Shown: positions 6,163 to 15,344 of the stretch, one piece after another
How the letters are laid out: every line of letters begins with the position of its first letter
Numbering within the stretch: the first letter of the stretch is position 1
DNA from: a virus
Lineage: Duplodnaviria; Caudoviricetes
Reading direction: 5' to 3' (one strand)
Length of the DNA: 37,638 nt
IMG/VR virus record: IMGVR_UViG_3300011338_000863
Coordinates: 1-37,638 of that record
The notes under the pieces: model-generated
The model's input: the letters and a program-made list of their open reading frames with translations, nothing else
The model's database searches: none
Told to the model about the DNA's origin: nothing
Made by a program: the position numbers and the translations under genes

Positions 6163-6381
6163 ATGTCAAAAAAAGAAGTTTTACACAAACTAAAAGTGGC
6201 ATGCGAGGTTAGGAAAATTAATCCGTCTCGGCTTGCTGCTGAAATTGGATGTTCTCCGAGTTATATTAATTTACTATTTAGCGGTCATTATCGCTATGAG
6301 CCCAGTGATGCATTCATCGAGGCGGCCAATGAGTGGCTTGATCGATGCTGGGTGTGTGGAAAGGATTGGAACAAGAAATGA
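6163..6381 (+). CDS. XRE/Cro-like helix-turn-helix regulator
   Basis: INPSRLAAEIGCSPSYINLLFSG is a classic HTH. ATG 6163 is preferred over the upstream TTG in the ORF track. Confidence 0.8.
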   Translation: MSKKEVLHKLKVACEVRKINPSRLAAEIGCSPSYINLLFSGHYRYEPSDAFIEAANEWLDRCWVCGKDWNKK

Positions 6382-7244
6382 TAAATGTGGTGGTTGCTTA
6401 CGCAGACGGAAATACAGACAGTCACGAGGTAAGTATAATCAGGTTCCCTGATGGCCAGACAAGTTCGTACATCAAAGACTTGAAGCCAATGGAAAAGGTT
6501 TGTTTTGTTGAGGTTAAATGCAGAATATTCAACAACGACGATTACATGTCCCTTCTTCAGGTGTGTGATATAATTAATCGCACGGGATGGACGTACGACA
6601 TCCATATGCCATATCTCTTCGCGGCGAGAAGCGATCGAGCATTTTCCGATGTGAGGAGTGTTGACCTTCCTGTTTACCTTAACCCTTTGATGGCCAATAT
6701 GAAACACGGGACACTGCGTAACATTTTGGTGTTTGATGCGCATAATAATTTTATCATTCCCGAGGAAGGAAGGATTCATTATCACAAAATGAGGAGGGTT
6801 AAGAACTTAGGGCCGAATAAAATAATCAATAAAATTATCGGGAAGATAGGAGAAGTAAACATTGTTTTCCCGGACCGGGGAGCGATTCTCCGTTATGGTA
6901 AACTTATTATGGAAAGGTCCGGACTCGGAGCTGTTTGCGGAGAAAAAAGTCGAGACAAAGAAGGGAATATCGAGAACGTAGAACTATGTTTTGCTTACCA
7001 AAAGTCAGGAATAAGAAACTATCTTGTCGTAGACGATTTGTGCGATGGAGGAAGAACTTTTATCGAGGTAGCTAAAGGCCTCAGGAGAACTGGGGCTAAA
7101 ATCGAAAGATTAGAGCTTTATGTTTCTCATGGTGTCTTCAGCAATGGGGTTGAGCCGTTGCTCGAGTATTACGACCACATTTACTGCACGAATTCACATC
7201 ATGAATTTGAACACGAAAAAGTTACCCAAATTAAGGTGATATAA
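6378..7244 (+). CDS. prs: Ribose-phosphate pyrophosphokinase-like protein (Adps-like, NARP1)
   Basis: RFPDG, MPYLFAARSDR, FDAH, VFPDRGA, PRPP-binding loop VVDDLCDGGRTF, LYVSHGVFS, CTNS. ATGA overlap with the HTH gene. Confidence 0.9.
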   Translation: MINVVVAYADGNTDSHEVSIIRFPDGQTSSYIKDLKPMEKVCFVEVKCRIFNNDDYMSLLQVCDIINRTGWTYDIHMPYLFAARSDRAFSDVRSVDLPVYLNPLMANMKHGTLRNILVFDAHNNFIIPEEGRIHYHKMRRVKNLGPNKIINKIIGKIGEVNIVFPDRGAILRYGKLIMERSGLGAVCGEKSRDKEGNIENVELCFAYQKSGIRNYLVVDDLCDGGRTFIEVAKGLRRTGAKIERLELYVSHGVFSNGVEPLLEYYDHIYCTNSHHEFEHEKVTQIKVI

Positions 7245-7246
7245 CA

Positions 7247-8662
7247 ATGACGATGAATAACTGGTTACTTTGCACAGACGTTTACAAGCTTGGACACATG
7301 GAACAATACCCCAAAGGGACAACTGAGGTTTATTCTTACCTCCACACGAGAAGTGACAGAAAATACCTCAGGGTGCCTTTCTTTGGTCTGCAGTATCTGC
7401 TTAAGAAATATTTAAGTGAGAAAATCACTTATGACATGTGCTTTGATCTAGCTGAGATAAGAAGAGGTTTAATTGGAGATCGTGGATCGTTCGAATTCTG
7501 TCGTAAATTATCGAATTTATCTGGAATTGGTTATTTGCCATTGAAGATCCGTGCTGTCCCTGAAGGGACCATGGTTAATAACCCGAATGCGTTGATGACC
7601 ATAGTCAATACCCATCCTGAATTTTCATGGCTTCCTGGATACCTGGAATCATTCTTTCTCCAGCTGTGGAATCCATGCACCGTGGCTGCAATGAGTAGGA
7701 AATACTATGAAATCGCCAAAAAATTTGGACTCACTACTTGCGACAATCTCGACCATTTGCCTTATGCTGTCCATGATTTCGGGTATCGTGGTGTGTCATC
7801 AAACGAAACAGCCGCTATTTCTGGTGCAGCCCATCTTATTAACTTCCTTGGTTCTGATACTATACCCGCGGTCAAGCTTATAAAGGATTACTATGGACCA
7901 TGTGATAGCATTGCTAAGTCTGTCCCTGCTAGTGAACACAGTGTTATGTGCGCCTTTGGTCGTAATTTTGAATTGGAGGCCTTTGAGAATATGCTCTCCT
8001 TATACCCGAATGGTATTGTTAGCGTCGTTGCTGACACTTACGACGTTTATAATGCTGTCACCGTTATTGCTGGAAAGCTCAAAGACAAAATCATGTCTCG
8101 CCCAGGAAAAGTAGTTTTCCGCCCAGACAGCGGTGAACCAAATCTTATCATCAATGGGGATAAGTCCGCTGATACGTTGCCTGCTGCTGATGGCGTTCTT
8201 AAATGCTTGCATGATGTTTTCGGTGGAACTGTTAACGGCAAGGGGTACAAAGTGTTAGACGAGCACGTGGGACTAATTTACGGGGATGGGATATTTTATG
8301 AGCGATACGTTGAGATTCTCTCGACGATGCAGGCTAATCGTTTTGCGTCTTCTAATCTCGTTGTTGGCGTGGGCGGCCTATTGCTTCAACAGCACAACCG
8401 CGACGATATGGGTTTTTCGATTAAGGCAACGAATGTTGTGGTTAATGGTGAATCGCGAATGATTTACAAGTCACCGATAACTGACCCTGGTAAGAAGTCT
8501 CACCGCGGCAAGATCATGCTGGTGAAAAATGGTGACAATTACAGCACCATCGACCAAGAGCAATCAGACGGATACACCCAGAACGAAATGCGTACGGTTT
8601 ATCTTGATGGCAAGATTTTAATAGACGAATCATTTGACCAAATTAGAAGCCGTGTGCTATGA
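7247..8662 (+). CDS. nadV: Nicotinamide phosphoribosyltransferase-family protein (Namat-like, NARP1)
   Basis: TDVYKLGH..QYP, FFGLQY, HDFGYRGVSS, SVPASEHSVM, SVVADTYD, RPDSGEP, GLIYGDGI, RDD.GFSIKAT, K.PITDPGKKS. Confidence 0.93.
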   Translation: MTMNNWLLCTDVYKLGHMEQYPKGTTEVYSYLHTRSDRKYLRVPFFGLQYLLKKYLSEKITYDMCFDLAEIRRGLIGDRGSFEFCRKLSNLSGIGYLPLKIRAVPEGTMVNNPNALMTIVNTHPEFSWLPGYLESFFLQLWNPCTVAAMSRKYYEIAKKFGLTTCDNLDHLPYAVHDFGYRGVSSNETAAISGAAHLINFLGSDTIPAVKLIKDYYGPCDSIAKSVPASEHSVMCAFGRNFELEAFENMLSLYPNGIVSVVADTYDVYNAVTVIAGKLKDKIMSRPGKVVFRPDSGEPNLIINGDKSADTLPAADGVLKCLHDVFGGTVNGKGYKVLDEHVGLIYGDGIFYERYVEILSTMQANRFASSNLVVGVGGLLLQQHNRDDMGFSIKATNVVVNGESRMIYKSPITDPGKKSHRGKIMLVKNGDNYSTIDQEQSDGYTQNEMRTVYLDGKILIDESFDQIRSRVL

Positions 8663-8669
8663 GCGGTAT

Positions 8670-8721
8670 GGGACTTTTACAGCAACTTAAATTTTTTGCG
8701 TTAAAAAAACTTATGAGTCCC
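8670..8721 (+). ncRNA. ACAGCA-clamp RNA unit 1 (minimal Y-RNA-like unit)
   Basis: Stem GGGACTT/GAGTCCC, ACAGCA at 8679, internal T-tract/A-tract hairpin. Confidence 0.65.
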
Positions 8722-8731
8722 GATGTACTTT

Positions 8732-8817
8732 GAAACTCTCACAGCAATAATAAAAGGGGTGCAAATCCCCTGATCCCCATTTTTACGGGGATCGCTTAAG
8801 TGCGTATCTAGAGTTTC
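8732..8817 (+). ncRNA. ACAGCA-clamp RNA unit 2 (permuted tRNA-like, YrlA-like)
   Basis: Stem GAAACTCT/AGAGTTTC, ACAGCA at 8741, T-arm AGGGG-TGCAAAT-CCCCT, loop-closed acceptor GATCCCC/GGGGATC, reduced D-like hairpin. Confidence 0.75.
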
Positions 8818-8821
8818 GCAT

Positions 8822-8936
8822 AGGTCGCTTACAGCAGAATAACACCCATCTAAGGGCGGTGTCCTTGGTTCAATTCCAAGTGGGCCCATTTTGTGGGCTC
8901 ATAGCTCAGTTGGTAGAGCACGCATTTATGCGACCT
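8822..8936 (+). ncRNA. ACAGCA-clamp RNA unit 3 (fully permuted tRNA module, YrlA-like)
   Basis: Stem AGGTCGC/GCGACCT, ACAGCA at 8831, T-arm CTTGG-TTCAATT-CCAAG, acceptor TGGGCCC/GGGCTCA closed by a loop, then canonical TA-GCTC-AGTTGGTA-GAGC D-arm. Confidence 0.85.
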
Positions 8937-8947
8937 GATTTTATTTT

Positions 8948-9035
8948 GAGTTCTCGAACAGCAATACTTTCGGAGTTGTCTTGTTCGCTTGGTCTGCTGG
9001 ACGAAGAAAGATAAGAAACGAAGAACGGAGAGCTT
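8948..9035 (+). ncRNA. ACAGCA-clamp RNA unit 4 (non-tRNA internal domain)
   Basis: Stem GAGTTCTC/GAGAGCTT (with G-U pairs), ACAGCA at 8958, internal imperfect hairpins and a purine-rich 3' part. Confidence 0.6.
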
Positions 9036-9036
9036 T

Positions 9037-9140
9037 GGGCGCCTACAGCAAATGAAATGCACGTCACGCCGAGGAACCGGGTTAGAGTCCCGGAGGACTA
9101 TGTCCTTAGTTTATGGTTAGAACATCGTAATCTGGCGCCC
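9037..9140 (+). ncRNA. ACAGCA-clamp RNA unit 5 (permuted tRNA-Asp-like module)
   Basis: Stem GGGCGCC/GGCGCCC, ACAGCA at 9045, GTC-AC-GCCGA anticodon remnant, T-arm CCGGG-TTAGAGT-CCCGG, short acceptor AGGAC-TAT-GTCCT, D-arm TA-GTTT-ATGGTTA-GAAC. Confidence 0.82.
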
Positions 9141-9143
9141 TTT

Positions 9144-9230
9144 AGGACACTGACAGCAGAACAAATCACCATTGGTTGATTTCGACTTTAAATCGAAAGA
9201 GGCGGTTCAATTCCGTCAATTATGTGTCCT
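9144..9230 (+). ncRNA. ACAGCA-clamp RNA unit 6 (unpermuted D/anticodon/T module, TTA anticodon)
   Basis: Stem AGGACAC/GTGTCCT, ACAGCA at 9153, hairpin AATCA/TGATT, anticodon arm TTCGA-CTTTAAA-TCGAA, T-arm GGCGG-TTCAATT-CCGTC. Confidence 0.8.
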
Positions 9231-9250
9231 TTTTATTTTTAGGAGAGAGA

Positions 9251-10975
9251 ATGAACATTATTGATATTATTGCCCAAGATGCAGCAAAAAACACCACCAC
9301 ATGGAATGGCGCGCCGAGTAACTCGACAACCGGCAGCCATTGCCTGGACTATTGGTCCAAATGTGGAACTTACCGCGGCCGCACTCAAGATGAAGTCAAT
9401 GCGGACATGCAGAAGATATTCTACGAAGACGAGATCAAGGCGCTTAAGGTTGTTTTTGGGTTGCGCTTGGTGACGCGTAAGGTAAAGACGCCTTTCTTGG
9501 CTCCTGGTCAAAAAGAGTTTCTTGATACCAAAGACACACAAACTGGTTATGGCCAACGCGATGAATTTTTTAAAGCTGTTCGCTGGCTGGCAATCAATAA
9601 AAGCGAATTGCTCCTTAAGAACTTAATCATGATTCCAGTTGTCGGGTCGTGGAAAGATTTTTTCTCTGAGGATCTGCTTGATGCTCTGAGTCCAATTGTC
9701 GTATTTGAGTTGGTTCGCTTGTATGCCAAGGACCCCTTGCTTCGTAAATACCTGCCAACGATGCACTCCAAGGGCAAGAAGCGCGGTGACTTAGCTAAGA
9801 AGAAATCAGATTGGGCTAAGAAATTCTGCTCGCATGTAAAAATTAGCCACAAGCAATACCGAGAGCTTAAAAAGAGCGGCAAGGCTCATACCTTCCAAAG
9901 GCAGATGAGCCAAGGAGATTGGGCGAATATCAGTTTTAATGAGATACCTGGACGAGCTATCTCTCACTTAACCAATCGCAAGGGCAAAGACGGCAAGATG
10001 GCTTTTGAGCGCCACGGCCAGCTTGACCGGTTTGAAACATGGGTATTAGGCCAAGATAAGATTAAGTTTAATGGATACCCATACGAATTAACCACGGCGG
10101 CCTCTCATAGTAAGGCTCCAAGCTCTTTGCAGAAAAAGATTTACAACCGTCAGTTTGAGCAATTGCTTGAACCATTCAAGGGTCACAAGCTTGGCAACGT
10201 ATTCTGCGCGCTTGATACTTCTGGATCAATGAATGACGCAGTGGTGGGCCCGACTACGGCTCTGCAAGTCTGCTTGAGCATGGGCCTTGTTTTCTCTTGC
10301 CTGAACACTGGTTGGTTTAAGGACACGGCCGTTCACTTTGGTGAGAGGTCAAACCTGATCCGATTCAATGCCAGCGATGATTTTGTGACACGCCTGCATT
10401 TCCTTGAGACGATGGCTACAGCATGGGGCAGCACGAACTTCCAGTCGGTTATTGATTTAATCATTGGCATCAGGATGAAACACCCAGAAATCCCGATTGA
10501 GCAATTCCCTGAGACGCTGTTGGTTTTGTCGGACATGCAGTTCAACGACCCTGGCGTGCAACACTCTTCAGCCTCCATGCCCACGCAGAGTTATTATAGT
10601 AACTTCACCAATGCTTATGGCCAGCGAATGATTATTACGCCTCAGATGCACAAACAGATGTATGGTCACTTGTACCAACAGGCTTCTTTGACTAATCATG
10701 AGGTGGCCAAGCAGAAGCTGGCTAGTGTCGGATTGGGTGACCTGAGAATCATCTGGTGGCAGCTAAACGGGAATACGACTGACTTCCCGGCGCAGATGAA
10801 CGACAAGGGCACCTATATGATAGGGGGTTTTGACCCAGTTAACCTCAAGGCGTTAATGGGATTGACTGCGGAGAAGAAGGATTTCGTGGCCACTGCGGAG
10901 GTTAAACAGCAAACCCCGATGGATGGTATGAATAATTTTCTAAGCCAAGAGATTTTTGGTCTCTTGAAATTTTAA
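9251..10975 (+). CDS. DUF2828-family protein (Ro60/TROVE-like helical domain plus C-terminal vWA)
   Basis: TWNGA..NSTTGSHCLDYW, R...GYGQRDEF, VGSWKD, MIDAS LDTSGSM, WGSTNFQ, LLVLSDMQF, IIWWQL. True start is ATG 9251 after AGGAG; the ORF-track extension to 9176 overlaps RNA unit 6. Confidence 0.8.
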   Translation: MNIIDIIAQDAAKNTTTWNGAPSNSTTGSHCLDYWSKCGTYRGRTQDEVNADMQKIFYEDEIKALKVVFGLRLVTRKVKTPFLAPGQKEFLDTKDTQTGYGQRDEFFKAVRWLAINKSELLLKNLIMIPVVGSWKDFFSEDLLDALSPIVVFELVRLYAKDPLLRKYLPTMHSKGKKRGDLAKKKSDWAKKFCSHVKISHKQYRELKKSGKAHTFQRQMSQGDWANISFNEIPGRAISHLTNRKGKDGKMAFERHGQLDRFETWVLGQDKIKFNGYPYELTTAASHSKAPSSLQKKIYNRQFEQLLEPFKGHKLGNVFCALDTSGSMNDAVVGPTTALQVCLSMGLVFSCLNTGWFKDTAVHFGERSNLIRFNASDDFVTRLHFLETMATAWGSTNFQSVIDLIIGIRMKHPEIPIEQFPETLLVLSDMQFNDPGVQHSSASMPTQSYYSNFTNAYGQRMIITPQMHKQMYGHLYQQASLTNHEVAKQKLASVGLGDLRIIWWQLNGNTTDFPAQMNDKGTYMIGGFDPVNLKALMGLTAEKKDFVATAEVKQQTPMDGMNNFLSQEIFGLLKF

Positions 10976-10989
10976 ACAAGGATAAAAAA

Positions 10990-11610
10990 ATGAATGCAGA
11001 TGCTTTAAAAAATCGTGAAGTTTACATTGTGGTTGACAAGTCAGGTAGCATGTCTACCCCGGACTGTGCAGGCGGCAAAAGCCGTTGGGATTACATGAAA
11101 GAGTCTGTTTCGGCTATTGCTAAGCTGGTCGCGCCTTATGATCCAGATGGTATAACAGTTGTCCCATTCGCTAACCAATTCAAAGTTTACGACAATGTTA
11201 CGCCTACTGTTGTCGACCAAATATTTTCCGAAAACACACCAATGGGTGGAACGGACCTGGCCGCTGTCCTTACTGAAGTGTTTGCGCGCTGCGTAGCTCA
11301 GAAGAAGAATGGTACCCTGAAGGCCAACGGTTCTTTGATCCTAGTCGCGACTGATGGCCAACCGAACGACAAGGAAGCGGCGAAGAAAGCAATCGTTAAT
11401 TTCGCAAATTCCCTTGAGAAAGACGAAGAAGCTGGTATTCTCTTTATTCAGGTAGGTAAAGACCCGGACGCCGCCAAGTTCTTAACTGAGCTTGACGATG
11501 ACCTGGTCGCTAAAAATGGCGCTAAGTTTGACATCGTTGACACCAAAAGTTTCGACGCGGTCGAGAACATGGCGTTTGAGGACGTGTTATTAGGGGCAAT
11601 TAATGATTAG
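10990..11610 (+). CDS. Stand-alone vWA domain protein
   Basis: MIDAS VVDKSGSM, GGTDL, LVATDGQP, FIQVG.D..A.KFL..LDD. Confidence 0.88.
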   Translation: MNADALKNREVYIVVDKSGSMSTPDCAGGKSRWDYMKESVSAIAKLVAPYDPDGITVVPFANQFKVYDNVTPTVVDQIFSENTPMGGTDLAAVLTEVFARCVAQKKNGTLKANGSLILVATDGQPNDKEAAKKAIVNFANSLEKDEEAGILFIQVGKDPDAAKFLTELDDDLVAKNGAKFDIVDTKSFDAVENMAFEDVLLGAIND

Positions 11611-11830: not shown

Positions 11831-12010
11831 GTTGCCGCGCCGTTGATGTCGAAACATGTGGTGAAAAGACGAATGAAGCTGTGGAAAGCCTAACGAGTCA
11901 AAGTAATCACGGGCAGTTATAGGTAACTGGCGCACGCCTTTAAGAGACCTCCAATCTCGGGCCACCTATCTGCGGGAAAAGTGTACCAGGTGTGAACCCT
12001 GGCGGCGACA
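11831..12010 (+). ncRNA. Long tRNA-like RNA A (acceptor + T-arm with ~150 nt insert)
   Basis: GTTGCCG/CGGCGAC-A acceptor, T-arm CCAGG-TGTGAAC-CCTGG, several internal hairpins; lies between two tRNAs. Confidence 0.65.
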
Positions 12011-12017
12011 TTAATTT

Positions 12018-13360: not shown

Positions 13361-13502
13361 GCCGCCGCGCCGTGGTGGGAACACGGGTGATTCGATCCCC
13401 TTGCCGTTGAACGACAACGGGTAGATTGGATTTAAAAGTTATGGGTCATGTCCAACTCGTCCATTCAAAAGCGAGGGTCAGGTTCAAATCCTGACGGCGG
13501 CA
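13361..13502 (+). ncRNA. Long tRNA-like RNA B (acceptor + T-arm with ~110 nt insert)
   Basis: GCCGCCG/CGGCGGC-A acceptor, T-arm TCAGG-TTCAAAT-CCTGA, internal hairpins CCGTG/CACGG, CCGTTG/CAACGG, TTGGA/TCCAA, CTCG/CGAG. Confidence 0.7.
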
Positions 13503-13530
13503 TCCAGGAGTTACAAACAAAGGAGATTGT

Positions 13531-14218: not shown

Positions 14219-14358
14219 TAAAAGGTGCAGCAGCAAAGACTAAAAAGGGATTAAAGGAAAACATCAAGACGGAGATCAAAGCGGGAAAGCCTAAGAAGCA
14301 AGCCGCGGCGATTGCCTTCTCGGAAGCGGGAGAGAAAAAGGCCAAGAAGAGAAAATGA
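14212..14358 (+). CDS. Small basic phage protein (48 aa)
   Basis: MLVKG...ENIKTEIKAGKPKKQAAAIAFSEAG, a common small phage protein pattern; coupled to both neighbours. Not in the ORF track. Confidence 0.7.
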   Translation: MLVKGAAAKTKKGLKENIKTEIKAGKPKKQAAAIAFSEAGEKKAKKRK

Positions 14359-15344
14359 GCACGGCTACTTATGAGAGGATTGAAGAAATTCACCCTCACC
14401 CTAATGCGGACAAGCTCGAGTTCGCTCGGGTCATGAATTATGAGGCCCTGGTTCCTAAGGGTGAGTACATGGTCGGTGAGGACGTTATTTTTATCCATCC
14501 TGACTCGATCCTCCCCGATCAGCCATGGGCTGAACCATTTAAGAAGTATGTCCGCGGACGGGTGCGAGCCATTAAGATCCGCGGTGCTTACTCGATGGGG
14601 ATCATTGCCAAGACGAACATCATGCCGTTCCCGGGAGCCGGTGACACTTGGTACTACGGCAAGGATGTTTCCGACTTGTTGGGCATCACTAAGCATGAGC
14701 CTGCTTTGCCTAAGGACACCAAAGCCAAGGGCGCGCTTCCATTCGGTATTTACAAGACCGATGAGAGCAATTGGCAAGGACTAAGGCATCTGCCATGGGG
14801 AGAAGAAGTTGACGTCACCCTTAAGATTGACGGCCAGAGCGCGACTTATTATTGCAAGAAAGTCAACGACGAGTGGGTGACTGGGATTACATCGCGCAAT
14901 CTTGAAATCAAGATGGAATGTCATAACCATCTAACCTATGCCAATGAGCAATTGCAGATCCTTGATAAGCTAAAGGCTTATTGCCAGAAGCATGACTTGT
15001 CATTGGCGTTACGCGGCGAGCTTTATGGTACAGGCATTCAGGCCCACCAATACAACCCTCATTCGATGATGCCGGTGTCTTGGGCATGCTTCAACCTTAT
15101 GAATATCGATACTTTGACCTATTTCTTTAAGGGTTCTGAGCATTATTATGAGGACGCATGCGTTGAGATGGAACTTCCAACTACGCCGGTTATCGAACGC
15201 GCGCCGTTGACCAAAGAGCTCATCCACAAGTACGACGAAGAGCTCGAAGAGCTGTTCGGGGTTGGATTCGAAGGCGTGGTAATGAAGCATTCGACTGGAT
15301 CATTCAAGGTTATTAATAAATTTTACGATTCAAGAAAGACATAA
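14355..15344 (+). CDS. ATP-dependent RNA ligase, DRB0094/Rnl5 family
   Basis: N-terminal OB-like IHPHPNADKLE...IHPDSILP...IKIRGAYSMG; motif I TLKIDGQS, SRN, RGELYG.GIQ, FEGVV, SFKVIN. Confidence 0.88.
   Translation: MSTATYERIEEIHPHPNADKLEFARVMNYEALVPKGEYMVGEDVIFIHPDSILPDQPWAEPFKKYVRGRVRAIKIRGAYSMGIIAKTNIMPFPGAGDTWYYGKDVSDLLGITKHEPALPKDTKAKGALPFGIYKTDESNWQGLRHLPWGEEVDVTLKIDGQSATYYCKKVNDEWVTGITSRNLEIKMECHNHLTYANEQLQILDKLKAYCQKHDLSLALRGELYGTGIQAHQYNPHSMMPVSWACFNLMNIDTLTYFFKGSEHYYEDACVEMELPTTPVIERAPLTKELIHKYDEELEELFGVGFEGVVMKHSTGSFKVINKFYDSRKT

Follow-up and report, generated by a model that had tools for sequence, protein, structure and literature searches.

Six short units, each carrying the hexamer ACAGCA, precede the gene for a Ro60-like protein in a phage genome that occurs in riverine samples, which raises the question of whether they are RNAs that the protein would carry and, if so, what such cargo would be for. 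The window, meaning the whole stretch of DNA analysed, is an entire virus record of 37,638 bases that carries direct terminal repeats (IMGVR_UViG_3300011338_000863; Caudoviricetes). A preliminary description had read this locus as a candidate new Ro/Y-RNA-like system, with a terminal stem plus ACAGCA as the binding handle for freely varied cargo. We find that the handle belongs to a widespread family and that the locus is better described as a variant of the Ro60/Y RNA system; that description also overlooked the breadth of the family, the circularly permuted tRNAs with anticodon loops in two of the units, and a likeness to the Class I RNAs (RF01414) of dictyostelids. The array spans 8670-9230 on the + strand, directly 5′ of the DUF2828/DUF7788 gene:

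8670..8721, + strand: unit 1, a 52-nt minimal handle RNA of Class I-like size, with a 7-bp stem, ACAGCA at 8679-8684 and an A/U-rich loop with a weak hairpin (RF01414 20.9 bits, E 0.31).
8732..8817, + strand: unit 2, handle with a T arm at 8755-8771, an acceptor-like hairpin of 7 bp that is sealed (8772-8793) and a degenerate D remnant, without an anticodon arm.
8822..8936, + strand: unit 3, handle plus a complete circularly permuted tRNA (YrlA 30 bits), with anticodon loop 8847-8853 (UCU, Arg; A33), T arm 8864-8880, loop-sealed 7-bp acceptor 8881-8887/8895-8901 and D arm 8904-8919.
8948..9035, + strand: unit 4, handle plus a long imperfect hairpin of unexplained kind, the weakest of the six.
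9037..9140, + strand: unit 5, handle plus a permuted tRNA (YrlA 22.6 bits), with anticodon loop 9061-9067 (GUC, Asp; C33), T arm 9077-9093, sealed 5-bp acceptor 9094-9106 and D arm 9109-9123.
9144..9230, + strand: unit 6, handle plus tRNA-like arms in normal order, namely a weak D-like hairpin, an anticodon-like arm 9180-9198 (7-nt loop, UUA at the anticodon position) and T arm 9201-9217; the handle sits where the acceptor stem would be (tRNA-Sec 21.6 bits, weak).
9251..10975, + strand: DUF2828/DUF7788 protein of 574 amino acids, predicted to form a Ro60-like helical ring with a vWA domain.

When recomputed, the geometry given in the preliminary description agreed throughout. The hexamers start at 8679, 8741, 8831, 8958, 9045 and 9153 (offsets of 9, 9, 9, 10, 8 and 9 nt from the 5′ ends of units 1-6), and the units are separated by 10, 4, 11, 1 and 3 nt. 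Folded singly, every unit closes its own 7-8-bp terminal stem. In a 6×6 matrix of arms, the own 5′ and 3′ arms pair at 7/7 in all six units, against 1/30 foreign pairings (arm 1 with unit 2, using G-U). Relative to shuffled sequences, folding z-scores are −5.0, −3.2 and −2.5 for units 2, 3 and 5, −1.9 and −1.7 for units 1 and 6, and −0.4 for unit 4, the interior of which thus folds no better than chance. The minimum free energy (MFE) fold of the whole 588-nt stretch leaves units 2, 3 and 6 unclosed; separate folding would therefore need co-transcriptional folding or processing. Six ACAGCA in 588 nt correspond to a Poisson P of 1.4e-6 at the + strand rate of the window and before correction, and once it is taken into account that hexamer and place were freely chosen, the count alone is suggestive only, not decisive. 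The array is judged genuine because of the fixed offset, the stem closures and recurrence in other genomes. Contigs from a second study are letter-identical over 8606-8888, 8943-9111 and 9163-9514, most of the array, which excludes an assembly artefact.

A covariance model (R1) was trained on 52 short units from other genomes, the remainder of 62 candidates after look-alike removal. When the whole window was scanned on both strands, ranks 1, 2 and 3 fell on units 1, 2 and 6 (34.8, 24.7 and 19.7 bits); unit 3 was barely detected and units 4 and 5 were missed, owing to a training set made of short units. No existing Rfam family accounts for the array: at gathering level the window returned five tRNAs only, and on the six units every score lay below cut-off (69 for YrlA, 41.5 for RF01414). 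A sigma-70 promoter search near the array gave 11 matches for 11.7 expected, none of them ≤500 nt upstream.

The association of the motif with DUF2828 homologues, as the preliminary description would have it, is seen well beyond the river phage. Across 80 viral loci, ACAGCA occurs 44 times on the + strand, which is that of the gene, and 3 times on the − strand in the 500 nt upstream of the gene, and 36 times versus once in the 500 nt downstream. Over 215 loci, a loose stem rule closes 162/288 near-gene + strand sites, compared with 10-19% in control classes. In a fixed-geometry test without preselection, exact pairing with the own 7-nt arm was seen at 110 of the 288 near-gene sites, whereas swapping arms among sites gives 4.1 ± 1.9; the arms comprise 85 distinct sequences. 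Covariation counts from rows selected for pairing are circular and were not used as proof. The commonest length of these units is 40-69 nt, and the consensus of the family begins A (0.71), A (0.69), G (0.72) and ends C (0.72), U (0.68), G (0.94). After clustering, a strict rule places one or more units within 1.5 kb in 73/145 gene clusters. In many loci of rumen and gut phages a single unit lies just upstream of the gene, and units are present in the cultured phages Bas63, Winky, LMTA-34, FADO and phi1_175008; the stretch of ValKK3 examined contained no clear unit. R1 produced 50 matches, all on the + strand, in 23/44 DUF2828 loci outside its training set, and none in 36 TROVE loci (23 TROVE-bearing genomes), a control that covers only ~1.5 kb around each match and includes GC-rich members. 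The 20 permuted tRNA domains listed at TROVE loci have other leaders, never ACAGCA; they were found by pattern, and no YrlA reached the cut-off of Rfam in a scan of 20 of the 36 loci. These leaders are clade-specific, with a TACTTC-like end word in 16/20 rows and GNCGAA in 1/20, and several of the domains carry anticodon-like loops upstream of T (loci L339-L374).

The link also holds when tested from the RNA side. Searching for ACAGCA with a T loop after it selected 124 loci, of which 80 had flanks (three locus pairs share a contig); the gene lies in the flank of 30/80, on the same strand in all 30. Among the rest, the gene was found elsewhere in 8/15 closed-handle records searched (16/17 loci submitted) and in 1/25 unclosed records searched (28/33 loci submitted). 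Relatives were reached by alignment-based search, a single-sequence search for such loci having found nothing. Comparative sequence analysis thus establishes the handle, the covariation of its arms and its link to the DUF2828/DUF7788 clade; it is not a peculiarity of the river phage. The protein family numbers 5,872 clusters at 50% identity and occurs in 628/50,697 annotated phage records, among them laboratory phages that infect E. coli, Mycobacterium, Listeria and Bacillus; its RNAs are unannotated.

The interiors of the six units do differ, as had been described, but they are not arbitrary, because units 2, 3, 5 and 6 are tRNA-derived. In units 3 and 5 the order is permuted to anticodon loop, T arm, sealed acceptor and D arm. 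The anticodon stem of such permuted units consists of two local pairs plus three long-range pairs to the strand that follows the D arm, and the handle branches off at the break. Sixty T-acceptor-D domains were found after ACAGCA, 56 of them handle-closed and 50 long enough for analysis; a composite 5-bp anticodon stem is in register in 24/50, against 3.8 ± 1.7 in shuffles (maximum 11). These 24 loops have U33 in 21, a purine at 37 in 23 and A38 in 21, letters that were not selected for, and they display 14 different anticodons. With the register set by the long-range pairs alone, purine 37 is found in 37/39 and U33 in 22, the linkers being A/U-rich. As they stand, none of the 24 reads as a tRNA; de-permuted in memory, 24/24 do so in ARAGORN, partly by construction, unit 3 as tRNA-Arg(tct) and unit 5 as tRNA-Asp(gtc). 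The real tRNAs of the phage are Phe, Asn, His, Trp and Tyr; Arg(UCU) and Asp(GUC) are not among them. The permuted anatomy, with its sealed acceptor and in-register anticodon loop, is established as a matter of sequence.

The idea that unit bodies resemble tRNAs for the amino acid of their anticodon was considered and rejected: the nearest body among 678 tRNAs agrees with the anticodon in 0/24, compared with a benchmark of 41/80 that was aided by near relatives among phage tRNAs, so the mismatch may partly reflect divergence. A 7-bp acceptor is present in 41/56 handle-closed permuted units, and NCCA is encoded in only 8/56. Mismatched bodies together with rare NCCA fit baits rather than decoders. 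Among short units, hairpins with a 7-nt loop number 35/133 for 17.6 ± 4.2 expected. In some His- and Asn-type mimic loops, A replaces G at the wobble position (L079 5789-5904, L148 2741-2858).

The protein encoded after the array had been labelled DUF2828 and Ro60/TROVE-like. In Pfam, DUF7788 is the strong match (E 8.5e-22), DUF2828 stays below cut-off (25.6 vs 29 bits) and TROVE (PF05731) does not match; the Ro60-like part of the label is upheld by predicted structure. An AlphaFold model built from 68 sequences has a predicted local distance difference test score (pLDDT) of 89, and in Foldseek all 12 listed rows with E < 0.001 are Ro60/TROVE chains. Xenopus Ro60 (1yvp) superimposes on the model with Z 21.1 over 407 aligned residues (root-mean-square deviation 3.8), compared with Z 10.6 for the best non-Ro chain, and solved Ro60s share 10-14% identity with the protein. 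A PDB sequence search gave no match at E 10; phrog_850, an RNA-binding protein family, matches with E 1e-52. The MIDAS (metal-ion-dependent adhesion site) residues of the vWA domain, D322, S324, S326, T395 and D428 (DxSxS...T...D), are invariant in 68 homologues, and residues 151-250, a possible basic RNA-binding rim, contain 25 K/R and 8 D/E by sequence count. The predicted shape is that of Ro60, helical repeats closed by a vWA domain, in a protein that is not a Pfam TROVE member.

How these parts might work together is suggested by Rsr/YrlA and by the Ro60/Yrl pair of phage phiLo. By analogy with both, the array and the ring-protein gene would be co-transcribed and the single transcript cut into separate Y-like RNAs, each of which would be bound, stabilised and protected by the ring through its stem and ACAGCA, one RNA per ring. 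The handle is probably the site by which the protein binds RNA, as the preliminary description proposed. The tRNA-shaped cargoes displayed by the ring would then likely bait host enzymes that cleave tRNA anticodons or modify them; anticodon loops retained on bodies that are mismatched and sealed agree better with bait for anticodon-directed enzymes than with decoding. Given that the handle is such a site, we hold a decoy role to be slightly favoured, this being the least certain step. For the explanation as a whole we estimate a probability of roughly 45%. If true, the rack of RNA baits would be a new kind of counter-defence, made of RNA sponges instead of replacement tRNAs. Cleavage of tRNA is a known defence target, which phages answer with tRNAs (PMC11555353).

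Several observations weigh against the bait explanation. For 72/145 gene clusters the strict rule detects no closed unit at ≤1.5 kb, and the TROVE control and the identity benchmark have the limits given above. About half of the paired units are short (52/110 below 60 nt), most of them without an anticodon loop, and a stricter test for anticodon hairpins, applied to the short units, gives a marginal result (13 vs 4.2, null maximum 17). Within the window itself, the two anticodon loops of units 3 and 5 have no U33, and units 2 and 4 have no such loop. TROVE loci, too, hold permuted tRNA domains that have a hairpin upstream of T; in view of these domains, and of the published partners PNPase and RtcB, stability or tethering may be what the fold provides. 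The ppl defence system, which a homologue of the ring protein counters, is proposed in the accessible part of the preprint to degrade DNA, not tRNA (bioRxiv 10.1101/2024.10.10.617714). RNA production, binding, dependence on ACAGCA and an anti-defence role of the units are predictions for all members.

The main rival explanation keeps the same particle and gives it another job: the RNAs would be gates and tethers that bring the ring to host PNPase or to the RNA ligase of the phage, where RNA would be degraded or repaired. The tRNA fold would then lend stability only, and the anticodon loops would be leftovers. Such is the role published for Yrn1/YrlA and for phiLo Ro60-Yrl (PMC12135203, PMC4201824). 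The RNA ligase gene in the river-phage genome agrees with it, as do RtcB encoded downstream of the ring-protein gene in Listeria phage LMTA-34, an amoebozoan homologue that has an added PF13563 domain and the many units that lack tRNA cargo. Leftover loops should decay, yet U33/R37/A38 and the register are kept over 14 anticodons on mismatched bodies, and we regard this rival as unlikely, though it deserves to be taken seriously. The handles might instead act in cis, as operators for the protein's own leader or as marks for transcript processing, and not as free RNAs. Unit 6 ends only 20 nt before the start codon, the whole-stretch MFE fold pairs part of unit 2 with the ribosome-binding region, and the single upstream units of rumen and gut phages have the expected place; however, units lie downstream in 37 gene clusters and upstream in 47, inside tRNA clusters in Bas63 and up to ~200 kb away in one record, and an operator would not need arrays of tRNA mimics. 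This makes control in cis improbable.

A use of the permuted units as precursors of working tRNAs appears still a little less probable. RNase P would open the acceptor loop, CCA would be added, and the two-piece or ligated RNA would be charged, decode and replace a cut host tRNA. M. smegmatis YrlA is indeed cut by RNase P and gains CCA, according to the available text (PMC4201824), and the frequent 7-bp acceptors, the eight units that encode NCCA and the successful de-permutations are all in keeping with this idea. Anticodon and body disagree in 24/24, however; the acceptor of unit 5 has 5 bp, A33 and C33 occupy the loops of the window, and a handle branching off the anticodon stem would likely clash in the ribosome. 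Finally, chance hexamers with fortuitous stems, or an assembly artefact, might be suspected from the over-representation of ACAGCA on the + strand of the window (27 vs 10), from the 11% of random positions that pass the loose stem rule and from the poor folding of unit 4. For the array as a whole this is refuted by the strand bias near the gene, own-arm pairing, the reverse test, the anticodon register, the second-study contigs and the R1 matches. We therefore retain the display of anticodon baits by a Ro60-like ring as our working explanation.

The genome encodes a terminase, a P22-like portal and capsid, an amidase and five tRNAs. Further features around the array are:

6345-8662, + strand: genes for a PRPP synthetase-like protein and for NAMPT, immediately upstream of the array.
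10990-11610, + strand: vWA protein without further domains, encoded 14 nt beyond the Ro-like gene.
11832-12014, + strand: spacer of 180 nt that separates tRNA-Phe from tRNA-Asn; its GC-rich ends pair, and its 3′ end holds a T-arm-like hairpin.
13362-13506, + strand: tRNA-like RNA of ~145 nt.
14355..15344, + strand: ATP-dependent RNA ligase, Rnl2-type with an OB fold.

The PRPP synthetase-like and NAMPT gene pair corresponds to that of the NAD-rebuilding anti-defence pathway named NARP2, and the array looks to be placed in a counter-defence block. The RNA ligase is a possible RNA-repair partner of the ring. The RNA at 13362-13506 was missed by ARAGORN and scores 24.6 bits against RF00005; it comprises an acceptor stem, a D-like hairpin, a very long stem at its centre that ends in a 7-nt A/U loop, a T arm and a CCA-like end. 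The spacer at 11832-12014 folds no better than shuffles and has no Rfam match. In Listeria phage LMTA-34, a ROOL-like RNA (88.5 bits, cut-off 99.1; L083 922-1473) lies ~650 nt upstream of the handle RNAs.

Among known systems, the closest in layout is bacterial Rsr/Ro60 with YrlA/YrlB (RF02553), for which the available parts of two papers describe a ring protein with several same-strand small RNAs alongside (PMC4201824; bioRxiv 10.1101/312249) and, in the first, RNAs that the ring binds and stabilises. The units share with YrlA a terminal stem, a location <4 kb from a Ro-like gene on the same strand and, in units 3 and 5 and partly in unit 2, the permuted domain order T, sealed acceptor, D. 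They differ in the handle, which here is 7-8 bp plus an unpaired ACAGCA with GNCGAA in 0/6 units, and in sub-threshold scores for RF02553; the protein is DUF2828/DUF7788 without Pfam TROVE, and there are six RNAs. The canonical GGUCCGA bulged helix of animal and Deinococcus Y RNAs is found in 0/6 units, as had been reported. A further difference lies upstream of T, where Chen et al. 2014, in the text available, name the YrlA hairpin a 'variable arm' (PMC4201824), whereas here it is an in-register anticodon loop; an anticodon stem is described for YrlA in the accessible part of its structure paper, which reports no such loop (bioRxiv 10.1101/312249). If our explanation is true, the 'variable arm' of bacterial Y RNAs would be recast as an anticodon arm. 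We class the stem-ACAGCA RNAs and their ring protein as a variant within the Ro60/Y RNA system and not as a system of a new kind. In the literature searched, which left some relevant reviews and supplements uncovered, no paper connected DUF2828 with an ACAGCA RNA or Ro60 with Class I RNA.

Two phage systems come closer in setting. In Thermus phage phiLo, a Ro60 ring with upstream small RNAs Yrl1/Yrl2 has a proposed anti-defence role, and the complex binds and damps host PNPase, in the available account (PMC12135203; PDB 9kop, 9l5y). Its RNAs are of the CGAA type, however, phiLo Ro60 aligns with our ring model at Z 14-15 and 12% identity, and neither ACAGC nor DUF is mentioned in that paper. 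In Felixounavirus Bas63, g130 is a homologue of the ring protein and counters the ppl defence system; its authors, in the accessible text, note the Ro60 likeness of gp130 and guess some nearby tRNA genes to be Y RNAs, but identify no RNA (bioRxiv 10.1101/2024.10.10.617714). Two handle RNAs, which lack annotation, lie downstream of g130 inside the tRNA cluster (L081 7879-7936 and 8421-8546). The second, a permuted unit, overlaps an opposite-strand hypothetical open reading frame, bas63_0137, which is probably a false gene call. The ppl phenotype shows that g130 has anti-defence value and does not reveal its target; with these RNAs, a phenotype that has so far lacked a mechanism becomes directly testable.

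The likeness to dictyostelid Class I RNA (RF01414) is of another sort. According to the available sections of PMC7919456, Class I RNAs have a short sequence-free end stem with an unpaired ACAGCAA next to its 5′ strand; they also have a variable interior and many copies. Their ends, AAG and CUGU, compare with A-A-G and C-U-G in the handle-family consensus, which the window's units fit poorly; of the five marked positions in the 11-nt Class I motif (T3, C6, C9, A10, A11), 5/5 are present in units 1 and 2 and 4/5 in units 3, 4, 5 and 6. Only unit 1 falls within the Class I length of 42-65 nt. The best relative among 16 related loci reaches 38.4 bits, short of the gathering threshold. Handle RNAs are phage and bacterial, polycistronic and often laden with tRNA cargo, unlike the eukaryotic Class I RNAs, which have a DUSE promoter ~60 nt upstream, where our units are 1-11 nt apart. 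The same sections name the RRM protein Rnp1A as the known binder and report no Class I RNA outside Dictyostelia, from a search of few non-amoebal genomes and no phages. Homologues of the ring protein occur in four non-dictyostelid amoebozoans, Dracoamoeba, Pellita, Endostelium and Rhizamoeba, although transcriptome entries may be contaminants, and a quick tree groups them together, apart from the river-phage protein. The Rhizamoeba homologue (P0234, 843 amino acids) bears the extra PF13563 domain. Protein searches (the best 120 rows of each), 20-protein cluster look-ups and Atlas queries gave no dictyostelid homologue among the matches listed, so that common descent with Class I RNA stays possible only. 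As a tentative synthesis, DUF2828 proteins may be a second Ro60 lineage with its own stem-ACAGCA class of Y RNAs, in which the phage ring would be a swappable rack of anticodon baits against tRNA-targeting immunity and Class I RNAs would be the eukaryotic members, with an overlooked Ro-like partner. Comparison with the phage units could thereby offer a first route to the mechanism of Class I RNAs, the function of which has been open since 2004.

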